Virus record (IMG/VR): IMGVR_UViG_3300027583_000001
DNA: 41,808 nucleotides
From: a virus
Reading direction: 5' to 3' (one strand)
Shown: piece by piece, positions 1 to 41,808 of the stretch
Layout of the letters: the number at the start of each line of letters is the position of its first letter
Position numbering within the stretch: position 1 is the stretch's first letter
The notes under the pieces: model-generated
The model's database searches: none
What the model saw: only the letters and a program-made list of their open reading frames with translations
What the model was told of the DNA's origin: nothing
Made by a program: the position numbers and the translations under genes

Positions 1-99
1 TGCGGGTTAGAGCCCTGGCCGGTCTGTAAGCCAACGCCTGTTTCCATATCGAGATACAGCAAGGATATGCGAATGCGGTTGAAGTTCGAGAGGATGTGC
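1..99. repeat. Terminal direct repeat copy 1, identical to 41710-41808 (circular-assembly overlap or physical terminal redundancy)
   Basis: Read base by base: tgcgggttagagccctggcc...gagaggatgtgc occurs at both window ends, 99 of 99 identical. Confidence 0.97.
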
Positions 100-1217
100 C
101 GGGTAATCAGTTCCCGAATGATCGTGACCCCGTTGTCGGTGTACTGAGTCGGGGACATGGTGTAAATCTGATTCGTGGCATAGTCCGATAGCAGAGTGGA
201 CCCGCCGTAATAGGTCGAGAGCAGCGCCGTATGCCTTACCGGAGTCACTGACGTACCTGTCTGCACCTCGCTCCACAGCCGGGTCGAACAGTCATAGAGA
301 AACGAACGGTTAGCCGTGGGAAAGGTCAATTGATAGAACTTGTGCGTGTCTTGCTCATAAGCCAATGCAGTCGCATCAGCGACGGTCGTGAACGTGGCCC
401 AAATCGCCTCCATGTCGGCATCGGAGATGATGTTGGCGTTATAGCCCACGATCTGAACGCACTGCACCGCTCCCGTCCGAGTCACTGCAAGGTGAATCAA
501 GGTCTGATCCACGTGCGCGCGGGAGTAAATAGCTGCTAGGCCGTACTCATTCGCAGCCGAGATCAGCGGCACGAAAGGCTCCGGTGAAAGGCCCTGATTC
601 GTCCAAAACTCCGTGTGCTGTTGAGAAAACACCACCAGAATGCCTAACAGGTTATCCACCGCCAAAACCGTGTCCGAATAGATCGAGGCTGACGCAAAGG
701 CTAAAGCGCTCCACGTGGAACCATCATTGTTGTTCGATACCCAAAAGACCTGCGTACCCGGCTGTTCGGCCACAAAGAAGCCTGACACGAAGGTACAGGT
801 CTGCGCATTGATCGCAGGGAAGGCCGCAATCGTGGTGAGTGTGTTGGTGGCAATCGTCCACAAATACCCCGTATTACCGTCCGTAATCACGATCTGAGTA
901 GGGCTTGCGGCTAAGGAACACAGCCCCGAAAAGGTGTTGAGCGTCCCCGAGGCGATAGTATTTCCGGTTGATCCTAAGCTTAGGAACTGGTTATACGCCA
1001 CCCCATAGAGCGTCGTTTGTGAGCCTAACAAGGCCCGCAAAGGCAGATTTGACGATCCCACCGTGAACTTAGCGACAAGCCCCGGTGTTCCGTAAATGCT
1101 GACCTTGGTCTTGTCTTGGTCCGGTCGGTTCTCGAAATAGCAGTTTAAGCGCCGTTGAGAGGTAACAACGAGGCTTTTCTGTCGAGTGCTACCCCCAAAA
1201 AGGCTGACGATCCTCAT
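1..1217 (-). CDS. P22 gp10-like tail hub / packaged-DNA stabilization protein, N-terminal ~405 codons (continues across the junction into 41487-41709; 479 aa in total)
   Basis: Absent from the ORF track because it has no stop on this side. ATG at 1217 overlaps the stop of 1214..2260 (ATGA). I hand-translated every codon from 1217 to 1 with no stop: MRIVSLFGGSTRQKSLVVTSQRRLNCYFENRPDQDKTKVSIYGTPG...ITRHILSNFNRIRISLLYLDMETG. It is in frame with ORF 41487..41771 through the 99-bp overlap. The size matches P22 gp10 (472 aa). Confidence 0.8.
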   Translation of the reverse strand, partial: MRIVSLFGGSTRQKSLVVTSQRRLNCYFENRPDQDKTKVSIYGTPGLVAKFTVGSSNLPLRALLGSQTTLYGVAYNQFLSLGSTGNTIASGTLNTFSGLCSLAASPTQIVITDGNTGYLWTIATNTLTTIAAFPAINAQTCTFVSGFFVAEQPGTQVFWVSNNNDGSTWSALAFASASIYSDTVLAVDNLLGILVVFSQQHTEFWTNQGLSPEPFVPLISAANEYGLAAIYSRAHVDQTLIHLAVTRTGAVQCVQIVGYNANIISDADMEAIWATFTTVADATALAYEQDTHKFYQLTFPTANRSFLYDCSTRLWSEVQTGTSVTPVRHTALLSTYYGGSTLLSDYATNQIYTMSPTQYTDNGVTIIRELITRHILSNFNRIRISLLYLDMETGVGLQTGQGSNP

Positions 1218-2260: not shown

Positions 2261-3306
2261 GCGGTCATCCGCTCATCCAATTGAGCTTTCAGCACGTGCC
2301 AAATAACCCTGTACGCCTGATCCGGGGTGATATCCGCCTGACACTGTGCCACGCCTGACTCCGCTTTCTTGCAATGCTCCCACTGATAGTGGAGCTGGTG
2401 ACAGGCCGGCGCCTCGTTATTTCCCCTGCCCGGACAGACGGTATTCTCCGACCACAGCGGGTGGGTATTCACCCAATCCCGCGTCAAGTTCTCGTGGCTC
2501 GAATGCGAGAGAAACACGACTTTAGGATAGGACAATTGAGCCGCAGCGTTCATGAGACCCGTCTCAGGCCCGATCGCCATGTCAGCTTGACCCATGAACG
2601 CGAGTGATTCGCGAATCGACCACTTGCCACTGCGCCTATGCACGCGCGCTTCTTTCTCCCAGCCTTGCTCGAGGATCTGAGCCGCCTCACCGCCTAAAAA
2701 CGCGATATGCACCTGCGGGAAGTCGAGCATGATGGACGCTACCGCTGCATCCAGATAAGGCCATGTCTTGTGCACTGAGGAACCCGCGAGCGCCCACGCA
2801 ATGACGAATTCACCCATCTTGGCCCGCTCTTTCTTCGCCCAACTGCGCTCGGCCTCGGTTGCATAAAAATGCATCTTCGGTGCATATTTAACGCCGGCTA
2901 TCTCGTGCTGCACCTCGAGGTAATTGCGATCGAGCATCGAATGTCGCAAGGCAGGAGGCCAGAAGTGCATCGTCCTCCCAGGAAGCGCTAGGAACGATCC
3001 CTCGACCGACTCCGATAGATTCACCCACTTATCGTACTTCGCCTTGTGGTAAGCCCAAAACTCGCCCAGAAGGCCATTAGGAACTTGATCCTTGTCTTGG
3101 ATGTAAAAAGCATCGATGTTCGGGTCAAATTTGACTATGTCATCGCCGGGAGGGGAGGTGTATAGCGTGACGTGATAGCCCTCTGCCTTGAGAGCGGCGA
3201 ACACCGATGAAGCTTGGATAAGATCGCCGAAAGCACCGTAGCGGCAGACTCCTACGGTTTTTACTGGCTTTGGATCTTTAAAGCTAAATTTTCTGACGTG
3301 CTTCAT
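2257..3306 (-). CDS. Glycosyltransferase family 9 (ADP-heptose-dependent heptosyltransferase-like) with a C-terminal four-Cys cluster
   Basis: 349 aa. GT9 hallmarks: RYGAFGDLIQASSVFAALKAEG near the N-terminus, GSSVHKTWPY, and SLAFMGQADMAIGPETGLMNAAAQLSYPKVVFLSHS. C-terminal CPGRGNNEAPAC-x9-C-x9-C. Confidence 0.8.
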   Translation of the reverse strand: MKHVRKFSFKDPKPVKTVGVCRYGAFGDLIQASSVFAALKAEGYHVTLYTSPPGDDIVKFDPNIDAFYIQDKDQVPNGLLGEFWAYHKAKYDKWVNLSESVEGSFLALPGRTMHFWPPALRHSMLDRNYLEVQHEIAGVKYAPKMHFYATEAERSWAKKERAKMGEFVIAWALAGSSVHKTWPYLDAAVASIMLDFPQVHIAFLGGEAAQILEQGWEKEARVHRRSGKWSIRESLAFMGQADMAIGPETGLMNAAAQLSYPKVVFLSHSSHENLTRDWVNTHPLWSENTVCPGRGNNEAPACHQLHYQWEHCKKAESGVAQCQADITPDQAYRVIWHVLKAQLDERMTA

Positions 3307-3838
3307 GGAAAGCCTTGAGTGCTGCGCTTTGTTTCGCCTTTGTTTCCTCGGTGTGCTTCCGCCCTAACCACACTTTAGACTCCCTGTTTCTTTGGGCAAG
3401 CCAAGGTCTTTTTGATCCCTTTATTGAAGCTATGAGTTTTTTCTTATTTTCATCGGACATCGGGTGTCCAGGTTTTCCCGTGTTCGACCTGTTGCGGGCC
3501 GCAAGATCGGGTCTCTTCCTGCCCCTATTTCCTCGCCATCCAACAGTGCCTTCGCCACCTTCTGTATGATTGAGAAGCTTGACGCCTTCCATTCTCAAAA
3601 GACCGATGATCTCGATCTCATCTAAGTTGAATCTAGCTTGCTCGCACACCGAAGTTATAGAGATAACAAAACCTTCTTGCTGCTCTCTAAACATCCACTT
3701 GTGAACGGCAGTTTGCCTTCTCTTGGCGTAGTTACGGTGTTGGCACAATCGGGTTTTAAGTAACTGAGTAGTTTGTCCGATATAGCGCGGCTGATTGTTT
3801 CTAGACGAACTCAGCGAATAAATAGTGCAGCATTTCAC
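3284..3838 (-). CDS. GIY-YIG homing endonuclease with two NUMOD3-like DNA-binding repeats
   Basis: 184 aa. TIYSLSSSRNNQPRYIGQT...RLCQHRN (GIY-YIG), LLNHTEGGEG, then GHPMSDENKKKLIASIKG and GRKHTEETKAKQSAALK. Hand-counted 60-nt samples give about 40-48 percent GC against about 57 percent in the capsid region. Confidence 0.85.
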   Translation of the reverse strand: MKCCTIYSLSSSRNNQPRYIGQTTQLLKTRLCQHRNYAKRRQTAVHKWMFREQQEGFVISITSVCEQARFNLDEIEIIGLLRMEGVKLLNHTEGGEGTVGWRGNRGRKRPDLAARNRSNTGKPGHPMSDENKKKLIASIKGSKRPWLAQRNRESKVWLGRKHTEETKAKQSAALKAFHEARQKI

Positions 3839-4372: not shown

Positions 4373-4891
4373 TCAGAACCTTATGTAGGTCTTTTCGGCG
4401 ACTATCGGTATCAATCGGTGAGTCTGACAGAATTCTTTTACCGCTGCATCTGCTCCCGCTAAACACCCCACATCGTCACACCAAATAACTCCCCCTTCGA
4501 CCATGCGGGGCTGAAAATATGCGAGGGCTTCTCGATAGGACCGATATTGATCAACGTCCAAGTGAACAAAGGCCACCGGCCCCATCTCAACCGCACTATC
4601 GGGAAAGATGCCAGCCACCACCGTGGCATAGGGAATGGCGGTTTTTACTTCCTCGACTGAGGTGTCCGCAAAATCACCTACCCGGTGACTGTCTAACTCA
4701 CCGCGGTAGGGTATCCCAGTAAAGGTGTCGTAGAGGTAGCAGGGCCTCCCTTGCGCTTGAGCTACTTGGGCAAGATGCCAAGCCGTGCCTCCGTGGTAAA
4801 CGCCTACTTCAACGAAAGCGCCGGCAGGTGTTGATTGAGCGAGCTTGGCTAACGCTCGAGCGCAGTCCTCACTGACTAGGCTGTGCAGCAT
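4373..4891 (-). CDS. TylF/MycF-type (macrocin O-methyltransferase-like) SAM methyltransferase
   Basis: 172 aa. FVEVGVYHGGTAWHL, YLYDTFTGIP, FVHLDVDQYRSYREAL and GGVIWCDD match the TylF-family pattern (E.G...G, D.F.G.P, D.D.Y.S, GG...DDY). Confidence 0.75.
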   Translation of the reverse strand: MLHSLVSEDCARALAKLAQSTPAGAFVEVGVYHGGTAWHLAQVAQAQGRPCYLYDTFTGIPYRGELDSHRVGDFADTSVEEVKTAIPYATVVAGIFPDSAVEMGPVAFVHLDVDQYRSYREALAYFQPRMVEGGVIWCDDVGCLAGADAAVKEFCQTHRLIPIVAEKTYIRF

Positions 4892-32790: not shown

Positions 32791-33092
32791 ATCACACCTT
32801 CAGCGGGTAGCGTGTCATAGCCTTCAGGCTCCCCGTTCAAAAAGAGATTCAGTATCTCGCACGGTTCATTCGCGACAATTCTATGCCTGACCGTACCGTC
32901 AAAATCAAACACCTCACCCGCGCTTAAACGTACCGTGCGCCCCTCTTCCACAAAGTCACACGACCCTTTAAGGACAATTGTGTTATGCACGCTCGTGGCA
33001 TCGTGAACATGCGCAGGCAGTGACTCGCCCGCCTCGAAGCGGTAGCGAATGCCGAATAAAGCGCCTGATCGGTAGAATTGAAAGTGCGTCAT
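32787..33092 (-). CDS. Small cupin-domain protein (101 aa)
   Basis: LPAHVHDATSVHNTIVLKG (HxH...) and SAGEVFDFDGTVRHRIVAN resemble cupin motifs 1 and 2. Overlaps both neighbouring RBP genes by 4 nt. Confidence 0.6.
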   Translation of the reverse strand: MTHFQFYRSGALFGIRYRFEAGESLPAHVHDATSVHNTIVLKGSCDFVEEGRTVRLSAGEVFDFDGTVRHRIVANEPCEILNLFLNGEPEGYDTLPAEGVM

Positions 33093-34717
33093 ATGAACTT
33101 CGCAATCACTTTGCCGGCCTGTCCAGTTGCACCCGCATTTGCTGCCGTATTGCCGCCGAGGCCACCGGGGTTACCCGTGCCATTAGTGCCCGCGATACCT
33201 AGTCCGCCCGCGCCTCCAGAGTTACCTAGTCCGCCCGTAGTGCCAGCATTACCCGTGGTGTTGGTCGTGTTGCCGCCCGATGCCGTACCGCCCGCACCGC
33301 CCGTGCCTAAGCCTCCCGACACACCACCATTGCCACCGTTCAACGTCATGGTCGGGATGGCAAAGGTTCCGCTTGAGATAGTTGTTACGCCGCCATTGCC
33401 ACTCGACGCAATCCCCGCCGCACCAATAACAACGGTGATCGTTTGTCCATTGAAGGCCGCGACATTGAGTACAGTCTTACCATAGCCGCCTGATCCGCCT
33501 CCACCGCCACCGTGCGCAGTACAGCCAGAACCGGAGCCAGAACCACCAGCACCCGTAGTGCCCCACCCTTCGAGCGTCATGGTGGACGCCCCCACGGGGA
33601 TCGTGATGGCGAATGTCCCTTGAGTGTTCAAGGTCGTGGTAACCGGCGTAAATCCACCCGTAGCCGATGAGATGCGAGTGATGCGAAGGTAAGAGCCGAT
33701 ACCTAATACGCTCGCGGTCGCGTTGGATGCGTTTTGCGCCCACTGGAAGCTTAAGGTGCCTCCCGTGGTACAGAGAAGCGTCGCCTCGATCGGCATAAAT
33801 CCCACTGCGGTCTGAGCTGTTTGCAGCGTCGCCGTGGTGTTGATGTTGGTGAGGGAGACGGGAGTGACCGCAGTCCCAACCCCGTTCATGCCCCAAGAGC
33901 CGGTGGAAATGGTACCCGAGTAGTTGATCTGGCCTTTGAGCCCCCCCGCGGACGTGCCGGAGCCGTCATTGAGCATGCCTTTGATGACATACGTACCACC
34001 CGCGGGCAGTGTGACAGTCAAATCAGGATCATTCGCGACCGTGATATTCGCGGCAATCGAAGTCACCGTATTTTTGACGATGTACCAGTCGATAGAGGGA
34101 TAGCGGCGTAAGTACCGACCGGGGTTGCCACTCCCAATGGCGTTCGGCTTGATGACGTTGATCCCATCATCCGTCGCCGTGCTTAAAACGTTCCAGTAGA
34201 ATTCACCCCCCAGGCTATCGCTGACACTCGTTCCGCCCTCGAACTCTACGATGAGCGTCTGACCCGCGGCAAACACAGGTACGTTGGCTGACCGTGCGCT
34301 TGAGAAAAGGTCATAGGAGCGCACCGCATTGGCAACCAAATCCGCACCGAAGCCTGTGGCGGGATTTGCTAAAGCGGTATTCGTGAATGACACATCGTTG
34401 ATGCCTGAGAGCTGGTCGAGCGTAGGGCCTATCTGCGTGCCAAAGACCGGTGAACCGGATGTCCCCGCATTGGTGCTGATCTGCACCTTGATCGAAACGC
34501 CCGCAGCTTGCCAGATCGCCACATTCGGCAGGCGGCCTGCACTGTTGAACTGAATGGGGTTACCGTTCGGCGTGGCTCCGGTCGAATCCGTGTAAGTCGC
34601 GACAGGGGTCGAAGTGCCCGCGGCATACGTCCATAGCAGCGCATTGGTTAATACCGCGCCCGAGTCCTGAAAGACCTGAAGGATGGTCGAGAGAGGACAG
34701 AGGTAAAAACTAGCCAT
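33089..34717 (-). CDS. Tail fibre / second receptor-binding protein with a Gly-rich C-terminal domain
   Basis: 542 aa. N-terminal LLWTYAAGTSTPVATYTDSTGATPNGNPIQF parallels KLFTYIAGTSTKQVTYTDSTMGTMNTNPII of the tailspike. The C-terminal ~150 aa are GGxGG-type repeats. Confidence 0.75.
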   Translation of the reverse strand: MASFYLCPLSTILQVFQDSGAVLTNALLWTYAAGTSTPVATYTDSTGATPNGNPIQFNSAGRLPNVAIWQAAGVSIKVQISTNAGTSGSPVFGTQIGPTLDQLSGINDVSFTNTALANPATGFGADLVANAVRSYDLFSSARSANVPVFAAGQTLIVEFEGGTSVSDSLGGEFYWNVLSTATDDGINVIKPNAIGSGNPGRYLRRYPSIDWYIVKNTVTSIAANITVANDPDLTVTLPAGGTYVIKGMLNDGSGTSAGGLKGQINYSGTISTGSWGMNGVGTAVTPVSLTNINTTATLQTAQTAVGFMPIEATLLCTTGGTLSFQWAQNASNATASVLGIGSYLRITRISSATGGFTPVTTTLNTQGTFAITIPVGASTMTLEGWGTTGAGGSGSGSGCTAHGGGGGGSGGYGKTVLNVAAFNGQTITVVIGAAGIASSGNGGVTTISSGTFAIPTMTLNGGNGGVSGGLGTGGAGGTASGGNTTNTTGNAGTTGGLGNSGGAGGLGIAGTNGTGNPGGLGGNTAANAGATGQAGKVIAKFI

Positions 34718-36032
34718 ACTGCCAATCTAGGGCAAAGCCATGCGCCTGGAGCTTGGGGATCGATTCCTCGAGCGACTCCCCTACATCGTCGCGGTACATG
34801 AGATTAGGCACATGGACCTCTTTGACCGTCCCATAAGCCCGTTCGCAGGCCTTTTTGACGGTTTTCCCGAGGCCGGTAGCGACCGCCAGGTAATCACCCG
34901 TAGTGACCCAAATGTCCCGCTCTACCACGTTATCCCCTTCCATGTCGGGCATCGTGTCAATTTTGACACACTGCGGGGAGAGATACTTACTGTTCTCCTT
35001 CGTCACGCCGTAAATGGGAATGTCAGCCACCTCGGCCTTGGTGAACTTGCTATTGGGATAATCAGGTTGCGCTAGAACAATGCCGCAGGCGACCGCTGGA
35101 GAGGTTAAGAGCGTATCTTTCCCCTCGCAGGCATCAAGCATCCACTCGATAGGATCGCCCTTGTGAGTGGCCCACAGGATGTTAGCCGCGGGCCAGCCTA
35201 GCCGAGTCGTGAACTCCAAGGGCCAGGCCTTACCCTTCTCATCAATGATGCAGTTCACGTCGATATCGCCAAAGTGGCCCATCTTGACGAGATCGTCCTC
35301 TAACGGGGCCAGAACGTCGTCGAACAGCTTTGAATCTGCTGTGTACTTGAGCAAAGTGCCAGATTCTCCGCAATTGGGGCCACAGTTACCAGAGAGTAAC
35401 TTTTTGAACTCGAAGTTCTCGTTAGGCTCACCGATAAAGCCCTCAGACCCCATCCAACGCGAGACAGCAAACTCAATCCCATCCACCACCGTTTGGAGCA
35501 TAAACGGGCCTTTGCCGGCCACTTTTAAGCGTTGCCACCGCTGCAAGCGCGCGATCATGTCAGCGGGAGACTTACCGACATACGACAGGCTTTTGTCGTC
35601 CTCGCTGCCTAAAGTTTTGAAGACGTACCGCTCACCCGTCTTTCGCACGTGCGCCTCGGCTTCGGCGAGGGTCGCAAATTGCTTCCACTCGGGACATTCG
35701 ATGTCGTGATCCTCGAAAAACTTCATCCCCTCGGCGCGTTTAACCTCAAGGTTCGCAGACTCGACAGACGGGCCAAACACGTTCACCCCGGCCTTTCTGA
35801 GCATCTGTAGCTTGGGCATGAATTCGTGGTTGCCCGATGGAACGACCAAATCAGCCCATTTGACAGATGACAGCCAGTTATCGACTTTTTCAATTCCTTT
35901 GAACCCGGTCGCAGTTTCTTTGTGATTATCAGGGGCTAAATAAAGGCGTACCTGATGACCCGCTTTGACAGCGCGGATCGCCAGGGGTAGAAGTTCGCCG
36001 ACTGAATCCATGGAAATTAGGAGTACCTTCAT
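34710..36032 (-). CDS. PurD-like (glycinamide ribonucleotide synthetase family) ATP-grasp enzyme
   Basis: 440 aa. MKVLLISMDSVGE.., VNVFGPSVESANLEVKRAEGMKFFEDHDI, NFEFKKLLSGNCGPNCGESGT, PLEFTTRLGWPAANILW and GDYLAVATGLGKTVKKACERAY align block for block with E. coli PurD as I recall it (IFGP..AAQLEGSK.F.K.F, DHKRVGDKDTGPNTGGMG, IEFNCRFGDPETQPIM, GGRVLCVTALG.TV.EAQ.RAY). Confidence 0.75.
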   Translation of the reverse strand: MKVLLISMDSVGELLPLAIRAVKAGHQVRLYLAPDNHKETATGFKGIEKVDNWLSSVKWADLVVPSGNHEFMPKLQMLRKAGVNVFGPSVESANLEVKRAEGMKFFEDHDIECPEWKQFATLAEAEAHVRKTGERYVFKTLGSEDDKSLSYVGKSPADMIARLQRWQRLKVAGKGPFMLQTVVDGIEFAVSRWMGSEGFIGEPNENFEFKKLLSGNCGPNCGESGTLLKYTADSKLFDDVLAPLEDDLVKMGHFGDIDVNCIIDEKGKAWPLEFTTRLGWPAANILWATHKGDPIEWMLDACEGKDTLLTSPAVACGIVLAQPDYPNSKFTKAEVADIPIYGVTKENSKYLSPQCVKIDTMPDMEGDNVVERDIWVTTGDYLAVATGLGKTVKKACERAYGTVKEVHVPNLMYRDDVGESLEESIPKLQAHGFALDWQYG

Positions 36033-36144
36033 GTGCTACGTGGTTTGTTTATTTATCGGTATGGTCATCGGCAAATGGCTGTACGAACCTAAACCACAAG
36101 TGTATGAGGGAGTTCGCTATACCGTGTCGAAGGACGGCACTTAA
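36031..36144 (+). CDS. Antisense-oriented micro-ORF, 37-aa TM peptide (MCYVVCLFIGMVIGKWLYEPKPQVYEGVRYTVSKDGT)
   Basis: Not in the track. It exactly fills the 112-bp gap between two minus-strand genes. AGGAG (36019-36023) lies 7 nt upstream of the ATG. Confidence 0.35.
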   Translation: MCYVVCLFIGMVIGKWLYEPKPQVYEGVRYTVSKDGT

Positions 36145-38088
36145 TCACTGCTGATCCTGCAAGGTAGGCGCGGCGGACGGCGCAGCTCGCTGCAAATCCT
36201 GTAAGGTGTTTTTGCGCTTCACTGCCTGATTTGCGTCTTTAGCCGCTTGCTCTAACGGGTTGACCGTAGCAGCTTTCGCATCAGCTGCTTCGTGGAGCTT
36301 CTCGGCTCCCTTCTTGATGACAGTCCCAATCGTGTGCATCCCTGGCACATGCGAGAGTTTATCGATCATGGCAATCATGCGAGGGGTCGTGTTAGGCCCT
36401 GCAATGCGATCAGCCGGCTTAGTCCGTAAGTCTCGCGTCGCTTCCCTCAATTGCCGCAATGTTGCCTTTGCGGCGGGACCAAAGAGCGTGTCTAGCTTGC
36501 CATCCTTGTCCAGTTCATCGACCGCATCGATAAAGCTCGAGTTGAACTGCAATTGCTCATCCTCACCCCGAATCGCACGCTTGCCTGCTGCTTTCTCTTT
36601 GAGGTAATCGATGGTCGCCGCCCGAAGGTCATCGACCGCAACCGCACCTCGCGCCTGGGTTTTCTTCGTGCCGCCCTTCGTGAGCGAGTCAATCAGCCCT
36701 TTCAATTGCTCGTTAGAACCCGACCGCACTACCTTGTCAAACGTATCCTCTAGCGCTACTGCGCGATCTGTGGTGCGGCCTTTCTCGCTGGTCAATGACT
36801 TGATGAGCCCCTGACGATCAAACTCTGCCTTCGTCTTGGCAAAGGCCTTGCGAGCGGTCTTATAGGCATCCCCACCCGCTTGATCCAAAATGTCATCAAT
36901 GACCTTAACCGCTTGTTTGGCGTAGTGCGCTTCTGTCTTATCGGCAGAGCCTACCTTGACGTTCGCTTCCTTACGCACTTCCTCAAGGTCATTGATGCGA
37001 ATCGACCCGGAGGCGTCCTTTTTATAGTCCTCCAATGCCTGTCGAAGAAAGCCAGCATTGCGCTTATTCGCCGGCACGTTGAGCCAATCATCTAGCGGAG
37101 TGGCGTCCACGGGAGAGGCAGTTTCCCCTCCTTGCTTGGCCTTTCGATACTTCGCCCGGTAATCAGCCTCCAAGGTGCGCAATTTAGCCCGTTCCGCCCC
37201 TTGAACGCTTTCGCCCAGTTGAGAACGAGTTTCGACCTTACTCGGCGGTCGTACCGTGTCTAACTTTTTGTGAAGCGCCAAATCCTGAGCGGTATTGATC
37301 TCGCGCACAGGCTTTCCAGACGCAGCACGGGAGATGTTCTCTTCATGCGTCAGTTGCTCTAGGCTTCGGGTCGCTTGCCCTCGGGAGATGGGAGCGCCAA
37401 CGGCTTGCGCACGGGCAACTCGTTTGACGGCGGTGGGATCGAGATTATCCAGGTTCTTTGAGTCTTTCGCGATGCTCGTGAGCGTCTCACGTGTCTTAGC
37501 AGCCAAATCATTCCATACAAGGCCAATACGTCCGGCATAAGCCTCCGCTGCTTTGGCCGCTGTTGCTGCACCGGCCCCTGATGCTACCTTAGCCCCTTTC
37601 AGTCCGAGCAACATCGGAGCGGCTTGAATGGCCGTATTAGCTCCCGCGGCCATCGCAGGAGTAACAGTGCCTTTTGTGGTATCCCCAAAAGTCGCCATCT
37701 CCGGGTCTTGGTAGCCCTTGTCCATCAGGGCTTGACCCGCCGCATCGGCACCCTTGGCAAGAGCATTGAATGGTGCAGCAATGGCCCCTGAAATCATCTT
37801 TCCTGAGTCGGTGCGCGGCTGATAGGTCATCGACTCCTGAATGGCTTTGGGATCGCCGCCAGCAAGTCCAGCTAACCCGCCGACAACGGCTCCCGCCGCA
37901 CCCGTGACCATCTGGGCTGCGGCTTCCGTGGGGCCGAAAATCTCAAAAGCAGGGTGAACTTTGTCCGACTTCTCGCCCGTGTCCTTGGCGGCAATATGAG
38001 TCTTTACCACCTGCTGAATGACGGAGGGATCAGTTCCATCTGGAAACTCCATGGTACCGATCCCTTCCACCTCGGCTTTGATCGACAT
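36145..38088 (-). CDS. Ejection / internal virion protein (P22 gp16 position and size class)
   Basis: 647 aa (gp16 is 609 aa). Third gene of a 223/475/647-aa trio in the gp7-gp20-gp16 order. Ala/Lys-rich and helical. Confidence 0.6.
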   Translation of the reverse strand: MSIKAEVEGIGTMEFPDGTDPSVIQQVVKTHIAAKDTGEKSDKVHPAFEIFGPTEAAAQMVTGAAGAVVGGLAGLAGGDPKAIQESMTYQPRTDSGKMISGAIAAPFNALAKGADAAGQALMDKGYQDPEMATFGDTTKGTVTPAMAAGANTAIQAAPMLLGLKGAKVASGAGAATAAKAAEAYAGRIGLVWNDLAAKTRETLTSIAKDSKNLDNLDPTAVKRVARAQAVGAPISRGQATRSLEQLTHEENISRAASGKPVREINTAQDLALHKKLDTVRPPSKVETRSQLGESVQGAERAKLRTLEADYRAKYRKAKQGGETASPVDATPLDDWLNVPANKRNAGFLRQALEDYKKDASGSIRINDLEEVRKEANVKVGSADKTEAHYAKQAVKVIDDILDQAGGDAYKTARKAFAKTKAEFDRQGLIKSLTSEKGRTTDRAVALEDTFDKVVRSGSNEQLKGLIDSLTKGGTKKTQARGAVAVDDLRAATIDYLKEKAAGKRAIRGEDEQLQFNSSFIDAVDELDKDGKLDTLFGPAAKATLRQLREATRDLRTKPADRIAGPNTTPRMIAMIDKLSHVPGMHTIGTVIKKGAEKLHEAADAKAATVNPLEQAAKDANQAVKRKNTLQDLQRAAPSAAPTLQDQQ

Positions 38089-39515
38089 CAGGTCACCGGG
38101 TTGCCTTTGGCATCGAACTTAAGAACCTTGGGGGCATCGTCTTTAGGGGTGTCCCCGCCCTTACCCGTAACCCCTGCAATGCTTTCCTCAACACCCGACT
38201 TAGACGCCTCGATACCCTGCCGAACCGTCTTTTTGATCGACTTGAACTGATCTTTCGTGATGAGGTCCGGAATCACCTTCTCCGCCTCGTGGCGGGCCGC
38301 ATCCGTGACCTGACCACCCTTGGATAGCACAATGGAGTATTCCGCCCTCAACTCAGCTACGGCGGCTTTGTAGGCCGTTAACGCGGGGTCGCTGTTCTGT
38401 TCCTTGCTCCAGGCTGAAAAAGCACCCGCCGCTTTGAGCTTCGAGAAATCGACTGCGTTGACCGCTTGTTCGGCTTGATCCAAGAAGCCACCGGGTTTCG
38501 TGATGGACTTCTCGACCGGGAGAATTGCCGCCTCGCGCCGGCCCAAAACACCGCTTTCAGTCTTTGCCACCTGCATACTGATCGTGCCGTCTTTGATCCC
38601 TTGTGCAATCTCATCGGTTGTCTTGTCGGGATATTTTCGGATCAGGCCGTCAAGGGTCGAATTCTGCGTTTCCTTGTTGCGAAGTCCAGCCGGAAGGGTC
38701 GCCCCGATTGCGGCTATCGAGGCAAGCAAATCCCCGCGCTTGGCCTGAGCGTCGGGAGTTCCGCCGCCCGTGCCCTTAGCCTCCATCGCCCGATCATGCC
38801 GCTCTCGTTCCGCCTCTCCGCGCTCGGCTATATCCGCTTTCTTGGCCCCAGTTTGAGCGGTCAAATCATCACGCATGGACTTTAATTGCGCCTGTCCCTG
38901 TTTGGTCGAGCGCTCGATCTGCGTCAACGTGTCGTAGGTCACCTGACCGTTCTGCGCGGTGAATTGCTGCATCCCCTGCAAAGCTGTCTTTTTGACAGGT
39001 TCCGGCAAGCCTGAGTCACTTTGAACCGCGTTCAAGGTAAGCGGCACTTGACCCTGAATCCAGGCATTGATACTCGCGTCCGTGTACTTAGGCCGACCGT
39101 CTGGGGTCTTTTCGTTCTTCATGGCGGTCGCTTGCATCCAAATCTTATCGACCGACTGCGCGATGATGTCCTGAGCTGCTGAATGCAATTCGACCTTTTG
39201 CCGCTGATTATCGAGTTCGCCAGATTCTTGTTGCTGCGCGTACTTCATCACTTCCATGGCGCGGCCCGCCTGACCTGACTTGGTGAGTTTTTGTGCGAAT
39301 TCCGCTACCCCCTCTTTCGTCGTAAGATTCGCGCCCTTTGACAATGTTTTAAACTGCTCATCATCGGCAAGGGTGGCTTTTTCCTTATTCAGTTTCAGTT
39401 GATTGAGTTGCTGGGTATCAACCATATCCTTGAGCTGAAATCCCTTCGCCATGGAGCCCGTGATATCGGGGCCGGAAGCGCCAATGTCAGCAATCACTGA
39501 GGGGTCAAAAGCCAC
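38088..39515 (-). CDS. Ejection / internal virion protein (P22 gp20 position and size class)
   Basis: 475 aa (gp20 is 471 aa). Its stop shares one base with the start of the next gene. Confidence 0.6.
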   Translation of the reverse strand: MAFDPSVIADIGASGPDITGSMAKGFQLKDMVDTQQLNQLKLNKEKATLADDEQFKTLSKGANLTTKEGVAEFAQKLTKSGQAGRAMEVMKYAQQQESGELDNQRQKVELHSAAQDIIAQSVDKIWMQATAMKNEKTPDGRPKYTDASINAWIQGQVPLTLNAVQSDSGLPEPVKKTALQGMQQFTAQNGQVTYDTLTQIERSTKQGQAQLKSMRDDLTAQTGAKKADIAERGEAERERHDRAMEAKGTGGGTPDAQAKRGDLLASIAAIGATLPAGLRNKETQNSTLDGLIRKYPDKTTDEIAQGIKDGTISMQVAKTESGVLGRREAAILPVEKSITKPGGFLDQAEQAVNAVDFSKLKAAGAFSAWSKEQNSDPALTAYKAAVAELRAEYSIVLSKGGQVTDAARHEAEKVIPDLITKDQFKSIKKTVRQGIEASKSGVEESIAGVTGKGGDTPKDDAPKVLKFDAKGNPVT

Positions 39516-40186
39516 TATCCACCTCCCGCACTTTGCGTGTCTGCGATAACAGTGGGCGGGGCCGGGTTATTGAGCCCCTGAAGGGTGTTGTAGGTCGCGT
39601 ATTGATTGACGCCGCCCGATATCGCTTTTGTAACGCCTGCCGCGGTATTGGCATCGATGCCGGCCAACGTATTACCCTGATTCATCAGAGTGCTCGATAT
39701 GCCCTGGCCGGTCTGCATGATGCCCGCACCCGTACCCGCTGCAGCGTTTTGACCGATGCCCACTGCGTTCTGCGCATTACCGACCGCATTTTGATAGGTG
39801 GAGTCGGCAAGCCCAGTCGAAAACTTATCGAGAGATTCGAGCGTATTGCCAGAGAGGGACATGCCAGACGCACTGGCTGCGTTTTTGGTTGCATCGAGCC
39901 CTTGCTGTTTGGCGAACTGATAGCCGGGAGTCGCTGCTAGAGTTGATTGAATCCCCGCCGATCCTTGCGGGCCAATGCCTAACAGGTTCTGGTACTGCTG
40001 GATCGCACCCCCAGTCCCAATCGCGGCATAGGGCGCATTTAATGCCTCTTGCTTGGCTTGAGCGGCTTGCTGTGCGGCGATGGAAGCATTGGTCGCATCC
40101 TTGGTTGCACCCGCGGCCATGCTGCCCGCTGCCATACTCGCCCCGCCTGCAATGACTGCCCCTCCAATGACCGCTGCCGCTACCAT
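39515..40186 (-). CDS. Ejection / internal virion protein (P22 gp7 position and size class), Gly/Ala/Gln-rich
   Basis: 223 aa (gp7 is 229 aa). Hydrophobic Gly/Ala N-terminus MVAAAVIGGAVIAGGASMAAG. Confidence 0.6.
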   Translation of the reverse strand: MVAAAVIGGAVIAGGASMAAGSMAAGATKDATNASIAAQQAAQAKQEALNAPYAAIGTGGAIQQYQNLLGIGPQGSAGIQSTLAATPGYQFAKQQGLDATKNAASASGMSLSGNTLESLDKFSTGLADSTYQNAVGNAQNAVGIGQNAAAGTGAGIMQTGQGISSTLMNQGNTLAGIDANTAAGVTKAISGGVNQYATYNTLQGLNNPAPPTVIADTQSAGGG

Positions 40187-40187
40187 G

Positions 40188-40643
40188 CTAATCTCCCAAC
40201 CACTTCGAGTAGAATTTCTCGACTTCGGTGTATTTCAGCCTCTCAAAAAGCCAAGACGCATCCTTATGCATCTTAGACCCTACAAACATGCGCTGCACGC
40301 CTCTATTACGGGCTTCCTGCTCGACAAACCGAAAGAGTTTTACCCCTGCCATGCCGCCGCGGGCTTTAGGGTGTATCCAGAAAATATCCATTTGCAAGGT
40401 GAGGCAGGTCTTGTAATGCAGTCCTGGGGCCACGAACCCGACAAAATAGCCGACGATTTCCCCCGCCTCTCGCGCGCAAATGAACATCACTTGACCCAAT
40501 GCTTCCCGGTCGAGATACACGTCGTACTGGGGGTCTAAGGGTACTTTGTCCTGATTGAGCGCCAACTCTTTCCAGTGCTCAGGAAACAACGGGATGAGAT
40601 TTGGCAGCTCATCAGACAGAAGTTCTACGGCGAAGGTAATCAT
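40188..40643 (-). CDS. GNAT-family N-acetyltransferase
   Basis: 151 aa. GEIVGYFVGFV...LQMDIFWIHPKARGGMAGVKLFRFVEQEARNRGVQRMFVGS has the GNAT beta4-alpha3-beta5 layout. Confidence 0.7.
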   Translation of the reverse strand: MITFAVELLSDELPNLIPLFPEHWKELALNQDKVPLDPQYDVYLDREALGQVMFICAREAGEIVGYFVGFVAPGLHYKTCLTLQMDIFWIHPKARGGMAGVKLFRFVEQEARNRGVQRMFVGSKMHKDASWLFERLKYTEVEKFYSKWLGD

Positions 40644-41227
40644 ACGGGCTGCGTCGGCAGTTCCCCCTTGAATGAGAGGTGTTGAGTGCGAATGTCGATA
40701 ATGAGGTGGATTCGATCCCCGGCGCTGTTATTGAACACCTCATGCTCAATAGCGTTTTGAAACCACCACACCTCCCCCGTTGCCATCTGTACGCGCTCAT
40801 CCCCGCACCTAAAGTCCACTCCTGGGGTGCTTTGAACCACGTAGTGAAACCGATCCCAGTAATCAGCATGTACGGGGGTGTCGGCATGAGGAAATATCCG
40901 CCCACCGGGCCTGATCTTGTTCAGCATCACTCGTCCTAGACGCTCCCCCTCAACCGTGGTCATCAGATTGAAGATAAGCCCCCTGGAAGCCGGTAAATGC
41001 AGCGTCCCATCCATCCACGCGCATTCGTGCTGATCCTTCGTACCGCGCTCTAATTCGCTTAGCGAGGCTGGCGGAAAGCGCAAGAAGATCGTCTCCACGT
41101 CATTAAACGGCCCTTGCGGATAGTCGCGAAGGTAGGTATCGGCCTTCCACAGTTCAGGTTGCCGCTGGATCTGCACCATCAGCGGGGTCATGTTGATGCC
41201 TTGGGCAAGCCTCAGAAAGTTCTTCAT
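40640..41227 (-). CDS. Aspartyl/asparaginyl beta-hydroxylase-family (cupin-fold Fe(II)/2OG) oxygenase
   Basis: 195 aa. IFPHADTPVHADYWDRFHYVV...GEVWWFQNAIEHEVFNNSAGDRIHLIIDIR matches the Asp_Arg_Hydrox pattern (H.D....R.H, GE.W.F....H.V.N.S...R.HL..D). Confidence 0.75.
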   Translation of the reverse strand: MKNFLRLAQGINMTPLMVQIQRQPELWKADTYLRDYPQGPFNDVETIFLRFPPASLSELERGTKDQHECAWMDGTLHLPASRGLIFNLMTTVEGERLGRVMLNKIRPGGRIFPHADTPVHADYWDRFHYVVQSTPGVDFRCGDERVQMATGEVWWFQNAIEHEVFNNSAGDRIHLIIDIRTQHLSFKGELPTQPV

Positions 41228-41490
41228 ACCACCGCCCCGCTGGCGTTATGCCACACGATAGACGGGCTGATTTGATGCACGAACACCGGATACCCTAGTG
41301 TTTGGTCGTAATAGGATAGGCCTATCCACAGGTTCTTCGTCGGTCGAGCGGCCGTCGTTCCGAACTGCCCGATAGGCCCTAACCACTGCTGAATACCCCC
41401 GAACCACGCCTGATAGAGCTTATCGAGCAAATCCCCCTTTTGCGTGATGATGGGCCGGGTCGGGATGGGAGTTGTGCTATTGAAGCTCAT
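41224..41490 (-). CDS. Hypothetical virion-module protein (88 aa) directly after the gp10-like gene
   Basis: Coupled at both ends. Contains GTTAARPTKNLWIGLSYYDQTLGYPVFV...VWHNASG. Confidence 0.55.
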   Translation of the reverse strand: MSFNSTTPIPTRPIITQKGDLLDKLYQAWFGGIQQWLGPIGQFGTTAARPTKNLWIGLSYYDQTLGYPVFVHQISPSIVWHNASGAVV

Positions 41491-41808
41491 CCCATCTTCT
41501 CCGCGGGAGGTCTTTCGGCAATCTTGATCGCCCCTTCGGTAATGACGAACTTCACCGGGTCACTCATGCGAATTTTGAACACGTAGTCCCGTGCCGAGCC
41601 AAACCGTCTCCACAAAACCCTGGTCAGATAGGTGCCCACCGCTCCCAACGTCACCCACCGCTCGGCTGACCATGTTCGACCGTTATCCTTGGAGGTTTGC
41701 AGCATGATCTGCGGGTTAGAGCCCTGGCCGGTCTGTAAGCCAACGCCTGTTTCCATATCGAGATACAGCAAGGATATGCGAATGCGGTTGAAGTTCGAGA
41801 GGATGTGC
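41487..41808 (-). CDS. C-terminal part of the gp10-like tail hub gene (continues from 1..1217 across the circular junction)
   Basis: The track ORF 41487..41771 starts at a TTG that is simply an internal Leu codon of the wrapped gene. It ends ...RVLWRRFGSARDYVFKIRMSDPVKFVITEGAIKIAERPPAEKMG, compared with the P22 gp10 end ...RVLWKRVGRIRRLIGFKLRVITKSPVTLSGCQIRLE as I recall it. Confidence 0.8.
   Translation of the reverse strand, partial: HILSNFNRIRISLLYLDMETGVGLQTGQGSNPQIMLQTSKDNGRTWSAERWVTLGAVGTYLTRVLWRRFGSARDYVFKIRMSDPVKFVITEGAIKIAERPPAEKMG
41710..41808. repeat. Terminal direct repeat copy 2 (identical to 1-99)
   Basis: 99 of 99 identical to the window start. Confidence 0.97.

Follow-up and report, generated by a model that had tools for sequence, protein, structure and literature searches.

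The stretch of DNA analysed here, hereafter the window, is IMG/VR virus record IMGVR_UViG_3300027583_000001 (41,808 nucleotides, one strand), a complete circular phage genome of ~41.7 kb with a GC content of ~55%. On its minus strand, between a gene for a P22 gp10-like tail hub protein and the genes for a P22 gp7-family ejection protein and two presumed ones, it carries two enzyme genes, one for a predicted Fe(II)/2-oxoglutarate (2OG) oxygenase of the PF05118 family, here called the hydroxylase, and one for a GCN5-related N-acetyltransferase (GNAT). Our main finding is that these two enzymes very probably work together, and that the GNAT is the positional and fold equivalent of the protein known in other phages as internal virion protein (IVP) A, namely gp14 of P22 and gp13 of T7. 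As to what the pair does, the explanation to which we lean, with a confidence just short of even, is a coupled tailoring or assembly step for the ejection proteins, carried out by enzymes that would not themselves be packaged. The hydroxylase and the GNAT would then be functionally coupled, their genes standing at the front of the operon for the ejection (internal virion) proteins, and both enzymes would act late inside the infected cell, during particle assembly, and not be kept in the virion, similarly to T7 gp13. The step might be one in which an ejection or internal protein, or a small virion protein, is both hydroxylated and N-acylated, where the GNAT could transfer an acetyl or a longer acyl group; alternatively, the enzymes might prepare the ejection proteins for procapsid loading in some other way. 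It is more doubtful that the two constitute a dedicated modification system whose hydroxylation and N-acylation are both needed for procapsid loading or for membrane insertion at ejection. A GNAT in this slot is already published, but we found no earlier description of a 2OG oxygenase as the conserved, and sometimes fused, partner of IVP-A; in the literature we searched, no hydroxylase in ejection modules was described, and on phage PfAn1 (see below) and on the function of T7 gp13 nothing useful was found beyond Hardies et al. 2016 and the Cobavirus paper.

The two genes are tightly embedded in the module. The minus-strand order is gp10-like, 88-aa protein, hydroxylase, GNAT, gp7-like, 475-aa protein and 647-aa protein, with ATGA-type 4-nt overlaps at three junctions (gp10-like/88 aa, 88 aa/hydroxylase and hydroxylase/GNAT), a 1-nt gap between GNAT and gp7-like, and a 1-nt overlap at each of the two junctions that follow (gp7-like/475 aa and 475/647 aa). 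The sequence-only reading of this DNA had described this gene set, its positions and its tight coupling, all of which we recovered when open reading frames (ORFs) and junctions were derived again, the 1-nt overlaps being an addition. Both enzyme genes do lie inside a late operon running from gp10 to the ejection proteins, and the link which that reading drew between the enzymes and the ejection proteins is a plausible one. Our scan of positions 33000-41808 found no sigma-70-like promoter site (0, vs 4.3 expected by chance), and terminator-like sites were not above chance frequency in the same region.

The association of the two enzymes extends well beyond the window, to a large clade of phages and prophages, which the sequence-only reading had not noted. 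Homologues of the hydroxylase formed 1551 clusters at E<=1e-3, many of them on contigs of ~40 kb, and the order hydroxylase, then GNAT, was seen in ~45 phage and prophage loci. The IMG/VR loci had it in 34 of 38 cases, usually with a gp10-like gene before the pair and a gp7-like gene after it; one of the other four ends at the hydroxylase, and three (L039-L041) hold distant relatives that lie in a replication module, beside an exonuclease gene. Pseudomonas phage PfAn1 has the same hydroxylase, GNAT, gp7-like order, as do prophage regions or contigs of Ralstonia chuxiongensis, Cupriavidus basilensis, Paraburkholderia saeva, a Burkholderiaceae metagenome-assembled genome (MAG) and an Edaphobacter MAG, and in NCBI the three proteins of the finding are HXN95978-HXN95980 of a 'Candidatus Acidoferrales' MAG. 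Median identity to the window proteins was 54% for the hydroxylase and 52% for the GNAT, vs 38% for the gp7-like and 31% for the gp10-like protein, and in the same comparison the two large ejection proteins were mostly undetectable in the relatives; of all genes in the module, those for the two enzymes are thus under the tightest constraint. The pair is also found in another setting, as in Limnohabitans phage DC33 it has TerL on one side and a portal gene of the T7 type on the other, inside the head-morphogenesis genes. Phage MW202665 has the hydroxylase directly upstream of a 'DNA ejection' gene and no recognisable GNAT, and among GenBank phages with this GNAT 24 of 26 records are without the hydroxylase. 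Two annotations in these records deserve correction: the DC33 record (PQ492659.1) carries an Inoviridae taxonomy line, which is wrong for a tailed podovirus that has TerL and a portal of the T7 type, and the 'putative terL' of MW202665.1 (9780-11618) is a misannotated P22-like portal (PF16510, E=4.6e-83).

In one lineage the two enzymes are a single polypeptide. P0408 is a 368-aa protein in which a complete hydroxylase, a linker of ~30 residues and a complete GNAT are joined in frame, and it was found, with identical DNA and a GC content of 38%, on three contigs from three samples. A sequencing artefact was considered and rejected, given that the same ORF is present in three assemblies and that the in-frame linker connects two complete domains. 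Downstream of the fusion there is a phrog_598 gp7-like gene, followed by two further large genes; upstream, as seen on one of these contigs (L068), a gp10-like gene and a 197-aa gene in the needle position are separated from the fusion by a four-gene cassette on the opposite strand, which encodes a cupin (PF00190/PF07883), a PfkB-family kinase, and proteins of 518 and 82 aa (2846-5916 on L068; 120-3190 on L066). Since the fusion stays with the ejection genes even where the module is split in this manner, the hydroxylase-GNAT unit travels with them.

The 195-aa protein matches PF05118 (Asp_Arg_Hydrox) with E=2.8e-15 and 56.9 bits against a gathering cutoff of 22.6, and its AlphaFold2 (AF2) model (pLDDT 85.3) has a double-stranded beta-helix (DSBH) fold; it is a soluble Fe(II)/2OG oxygenase of that family. 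The GNAT likewise matches PF00583 above its cutoff and was modelled with the expected fold, so both enzyme folds named in the sequence-only reading are real. Its active-site proposal held as well: the His-x-Asp...His metal triad is intact (His114-x-Asp116...His162, with Arg172 as the 2OG-binding residue), and in an alignment to human AspH these residues fall on H679, G681, H725 and R735, of which H679 and H725 are metal ligands and R735 binds 2OG. Because D116 stands opposite the AspH glycine, the triad of the phage protein is the canonical one. None of the four varies among 38 close homologues, nor among 34 distinct ones with identities as low as 25%. The name 'Asp/Asn beta-hydroxylase' used in the sequence-only reading, however, asks too much of a Pfam label. 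The similarity to any solved structure is limited to the DSBH core (residues ~92-181). Foldseek returned PDB neighbours with TM-scores of 0.53-0.62 and E-values down to 2e-9, L-proline cis-4-hydroxylase at the top and a nucleoside-antibiotic hydroxylase, AspH and proline 3-hydroxylase among the others; profile E-values were about equal for AspH (2.7e-8) and L-proline cis-4-hydroxylase (3.7e-7). With such scores, and with the TPR domain of AspH absent, the name denotes a family and not a substrate, and we rejected an AspH orthologue for the same reasons, together with the length of only 195 aa. The N-terminal ~90 residues are unique and highly conserved (motif DYPQGPF...RFPP...DxHEC...MDG), and presumably define the substrate. 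A lipid hydroxylase of the LpxO/OlsC type was also discarded, as the protein has no transmembrane (TM) or other hydrophobic segment (the highest 19-residue Kyte-Doolittle mean is 0.73) and no NCBIfam family was matched.

The 151-aa protein downstream scored E=2.8e-7 and 31.3 bits with PF00583 (gathering cutoff 20.7) and E=2.9e-13 with phrog_1249 'acetyltransferase', and its AF2 model (pLDDT 86.4) matched many viral proteins with an N-acetyltransferase domain at a Foldseek probability of 1.0. Among these is ORFS of phage VpV262 (Q8LT55; TM-score 0.83, E=1.2e-10), a protein with a pfam00583 domain encoded directly upstream of the internal-protein genes ORFT and ORFU; phrog_1249 is in fact common to the window GNAT, VpV262 ORFS and Bbp24 of phage BPP-1. 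P22 gp14, annotated 'head morphogenesis', is also 151 aa long and encoded directly upstream of gene 7. The sequence-only reading had treated the GNAT as a departure from the P22 order, but the protein does not replace gp14: its gp14-like length and its position directly upstream of a gp7-family (phrog_598) gene make it the usual occupant of this slot and not an insertion. Such a view agrees with earlier work. Hardies et al. (2016, PMC4819975) reported that T7 IVP-A (gp13) matches acetyltransferases by HHpred and that phages of the phiRIO-1/VpV262 type have a non-structural gene of the acetyltransferase family at the IVP-A position, and Bischoff et al. (2019, PMC6775973) suggested that a GNAT beside the IVPs could be the counterpart of T7 gp13; an acetyltransferase-like protein of this slot that does not stay in the particle has thus been in the literature since 2016 and 2019 (PMC4819975, PMC6775973), and the T7 gene 13 product is reported to be needed for morphogenesis yet absent from the mature virion (PMC4819975).

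The GNAT family is large (clustered at 50% identity, it comprises 3436 clusters for E<=1e-3 and 1239 for E<=1e-10), and across representatives of 20-55% identity ~12 polar residues exceed 90% conservation, among them E7, H23, E26, Y43, R58, Y66, H76, D86, R95 and K124, a pattern that would fit a functioning enzyme whose acceptor is conserved. In each of the lineages that we compared, the gene had head or ejection morphogenesis genes around it: BPP-1 has it between those for the large terminase and the portal; Aeromonas phage HJG has it just before the portal, and no small gene follows tail tubular B there; in Zobellviridae Vibrio phages and in MW202796 it follows the hub gene and precedes those for the internal proteins. 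Searches for further loci with single distant GNAT queries gave nothing new or the same loci again. A GNAT toxin of the AtaT/TacT/ItaT type was rejected as a candidate because no antitoxin adjoins the gene (its neighbours are the hydroxylase and gp7-like genes) and NCBIfam returned only sub-threshold generic GNAT matches, no direct comparison with toxin sequences having been made. A further domain architecture of IVP-A-type GNATs is seen in two longer proteins of the same family, P0398 (277 aa) and P0473 (279 aa), which are extended at the N-terminus by ~130 residues without a Pfam match.

Several of our results weigh against the interpretation that we prefer. The fusion was found in one lineage only, and its three contigs, being identical in DNA, may sample a single phage population. 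By fold and profile comparison the hydroxylase is about as near to free-amino-acid hydroxylases as to protein hydroxylases, so that its substrate may also be a small molecule. The pyrophosphate-binding motif of the GNAT, R95-G-G-M-A-G100, lacks the +3 Gly of the canonical Q/R-x-x-G-x-G/A, even though R95 has a conservation of 97% across the family and G100 does not vary in 40 close homologues. As for the equivalence with P22 gp14 and T7 gp13, BLASTP against the two gave E>2, hhalign of the GNAT family (36-162 sequences) against gp14 (22-55 sequences) and gp13 gave probabilities below 1%, and neither protein was among the top 50 BFVD fold matches of the window GNAT. The PHROGs also differ (1249 for the window GNAT, 651 with PF11039/DUF2824 for gp14, and 308 with PF11090 for gp13), and a gp14 profile searched against PDB had as its best natural match the GNAT PseH, at E=0.09, with otherwise spurious designed repeat proteins. 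Our own profile-profile tests being negative, what supports the equivalence is the gene position, the fold and the HHpred result in the literature.

The similarity to free-amino-acid hydroxylases is what speaks for late-expressed metabolic or host-directed enzymes, comparable to products of auxiliary metabolic genes, with a small molecule (for example a free amino acid or a polyamine that would be hydroxylated and acetylated) or a host protein as the target, and with genes placed inside the structural operon by chance only. The top PDB fold match is indeed an L-proline cis-4-hydroxylase, with a nucleoside-antibiotic hydroxylase and proline 3-hydroxylase ranking high, the profile score for proline hydroxylase approaches that for AspH, both enzymes are better conserved than the virion genes, and the DC33 paper lists its hydroxylase under metabolic genes (PMC12195039). 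Such enzymes, however, would not be expected to keep a place within head and ejection genes across three module architectures, to stay beside the latter where the module is broken up, and to be translationally coupled to virion genes, nor does this explanation sit well with a T7 gene 13 product that is required for morphogenesis (PMC4819975); overall, we regard it as unlikely. High conservation would also fit a conserved host target, and the genes do sit among those of packaged, ejected proteins, so that both enzymes could be loaded with the ejection proteins, injected, and modify host targets early in infection, an option that the sequence-only reading had put forward. The IVP-A counterparts are nevertheless non-structural and not kept in the particle (PMC4819975, PMC6775973), and the GNAT gene of DC33, of BPP-1 and of Aeromonas phage HJG has TerL or portal genes beside it and not ejection genes, which makes packaged effectors somewhat less probable still.

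It could also be argued that the two enzyme folds serve as non-catalytic scaffolds, that is, as assembly chaperones that bind the ejection proteins, which may hold for the highly diverged T7 gp13 and P22 gp14. Neither of these two is still matched by the Pfam models for GNATs, hence the IVP-A slot tolerates the loss of canonical motifs, and the non-canonical P-loop of the window GNAT points in the same direction. Against this stand the metal triad and 2OG-binding Arg of the hydroxylase, unchanged in homologues of as little as 25% identity, and the conserved polar residues of the GNAT, and we would assign to chaperones only a small chance. LpxO belongs to PF05118, and relatives of the window phage occur as prophages, which is the reason for considering enzymes of LpxO-like or lysogenic-conversion type that modify the lipid A or lipopolysaccharide of the host. 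The lipid A role suggested in the sequence-only reading is nonetheless very improbable for a protein with no membrane segment and no NCBIfam match, encoded by genes that are co-oriented with and overlap late virion genes and have no promoter of their own. The coupled, non-packaged step on the ejection proteins accordingly remains the account that we prefer, at the strength given at the outset.

The features of the region are collected in Table 1. The exact copy of bases 1-99 at 41710-41808 (a 99-nt terminal repeat) identifies the window as a circular assembly, and the gp10-like gene is missed by ORF lists because it crosses the circular junction. The joined protein matches phrog_578 'head closure Hc3' over its full length. 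Megablast of positions 33000-41808 against GenBank phages gave no match. Between the capsid and tail hub genes there are minus-strand ORFs resembling a homing endonuclease (3284-3838; phrog_314, E=5e-12) and a methyltransferase (4373-4891; phrog_6608, E=6.6e-8).

Table 1. Genes of the tail hub and ejection module and of the adjoining region in the window.
Feature	Position	Strand	Match or basis
gp10-like tail hub/head closure (Hc3), 479 aa	1-1217 joined to 41487-41709	-	phrog_578, E=7.6e-86
gp10-like, N-terminal 405 codons (translation start MRIVSLFGG)	1-1217	-	
gp10-like, C-terminal part (41710-41808 duplicates 1-99)	41487-41808	-	
88-aa ORF, P22 gp26 position	41224-41490	-	weak phrog_20787 match
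Hydroxylase, 195 aa	40640-41227	-	PF05118
GNAT, 151 aa	40188-40643	-	PF00583, phrog_1249
P22 gp7-family ejection protein (IVP-B equivalent), 223 aa	39515-40186	-	phrog_598
475-aa protein, gp20 position, presumed ejection protein	38088-39515	-	size and synteny
647-aa protein, gp16 position, presumed ejection protein	36145-38088	-	size and synteny
PurD-like ATP-grasp protein, 440 aa	34710-36032	-	TIGR00877 (sub-cutoff), weak GARS_C/GARS_A Pfam
Gly-rich fibre-like protein, 542 aa	33089-34717	-	weak PF21722

In the needle position, relatives have one or more variable genes of 82-372 aa between the gp10-like and hydroxylase genes. The first of these usually encodes 150-370 aa, with an N-terminal motif G..s..W..f...l..rTGG and coiled-coil-like segments, and in many cases a beta-rich protein of ~112 aa comes next. 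The 88-aa protein of the window is related at its N-terminus to these proteins, including the product of L004 2147-2395 and, with 38% identity, the N-terminal part of the 197-aa post-gp10 protein of L068 (2059-2652); both it (weakly, E=2.8e-4) and the latter (E=2.7e-7) match phrog_20787 'virion structural protein'. Its C-terminal motif 'GTTAxRPT...YyDqTLG.P' (GTTAxRPT...YFDTTLGKPIW-like) recurs in two other phage proteins, namely a virion structural protein from Acinetobacter phage Ab1-TPeters and, from a TM7 phage, a protein with a pectate-lyase domain. These similarities suggest that it is probably a minimal tail-tip or small virion protein, even if the assignment is weak. The statement in the sequence-only reading that no recognisable needle is encoded was right insofar as no window protein matched the P22 gp26 families (phrog_1219/phrog_1030); the slot, however, is filled by a short member of this variable post-gp10 family.

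Downstream of the GNAT, the 223-aa protein matched phrog_598 'DNA ejection' with E=9.6e-23, the PHROG to which P22 gp7 also belongs, and an alignment of gp7-like proteins inspected for a conserved candidate modification site displayed the generic gp7 motif only. The 475-aa and 647-aa proteins had no family match in Pfam or PHROG and resemble P22 gp20 (471 aa) and gp16 (609 aa) by size and order only; the sizes of the trio fit the P22/epsilon15 pattern tabulated in PMC8954989. The gene that follows the third ejection gene and precedes the tail fibre encodes yet another enzyme, the third embedded in the ejection/tail module, an ATP-grasp protein whose match to TIGR00877 (E=3.3e-24, 85 bits) is far below the cutoff of 288. 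L004 (65% identity) and MW202796 (36%), the latter with the gene unannotated and no hydroxylase, have such a gene in the corresponding place, and it might either form one functional unit with the enzyme pair or be independent of it. The fibre-like gene overlaps its stop by 8 nt and encodes a long C-terminal Gly-rich domain with a weak match to PF21722 (Gly_rich_2, E=8.4e-4).

The biochemical role of IVP-A in the loading of ejection proteins has never been explained, be it for T7 gp13 or P22 gp14, and the IVP-A proteins of these model phages are too diverged to tell whether they are enzymes. Mutants of T7 gene 13 are reported to form non-infectious particles in which ejection proteins are missing or wrongly loaded. 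A conserved GNAT that is coupled, and in one lineage fused, to what by its residues should be a catalytically intact 2OG oxygenase points to chemistry rather than scaffolding. If the pair were indeed a two-enzyme modification system, it would be the first description of a phage ejectosome being matured enzymatically and would provide a biochemical function for the enigmatic gp13/gp14 slot, and hydroxylated or acylated ejection proteins would change the models of ejectosome assembly and membrane insertion. If the ejection proteins are not modified, the pair would be a widespread cassette of late-expressed enzymes with another target. Tractable systems exist for such studies, namely Pseudomonas phage PfAn1 with its host P. 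fluorescens, Limnohabitans phage DC33 and the prophages of cultured Ralstonia and Paraburkholderia strains such as R. chuxiongensis 21YRMH01-3 and P. saeva LMG 31841.

Compared with known systems, the hydroxylase can be aligned to AspH (PDB 5apa, 5jqy) over the DSBH core, its H114, H162 and R172 matching ligand positions, but it differs in having Asp116 in place of Gly681, in the conserved N-terminal half of 90 residues that is its own, and in lacking both the TPR domain and an EGF-type substrate context, the TM-scores being 0.53-0.59. L-proline cis-4-hydroxylase (4p7w) and proline 3-hydroxylase (1e5r) include the best PDB match by Foldseek (E=2.1e-9, TM-score 0.61), yet at an identity of 16-18% the phage enzyme is ~90 residues shorter, and its gene context is virion assembly and not secondary metabolism. 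With the P22 module (gp10, gp26, gp14, gp7, gp20, gp16) the window shares the gene order, from the hub to two proteins of ~470 and ~610-650 aa, and significant PHROG matches for the gp10-like and gp7-like proteins; it differs in the 88-aa protein of another family where P22 has a coiled-coil needle of the gp26 type, in the hydroxylase gene upstream of the gene in the IVP-A position, and in the PurD-like ATP-grasp gene after the third ejection gene. Finally, the GNAT shares with the occupants of the IVP-A slot in T7 (gp13), P22 (gp14) and phages of the VpV262/SIO1 type a length of 138-160 aa, a gene position immediately upstream of the IVP-B/gp7-family gene and an acetyltransferase fold. Unlike gp13 and gp14, to which no sequence or profile similarity was detected, it still scores as a GNAT and retains many conserved polar residues, and, unlike any IVP-A described so far, it is preceded by a 2OG oxygenase to which, in one lineage, it is fused.

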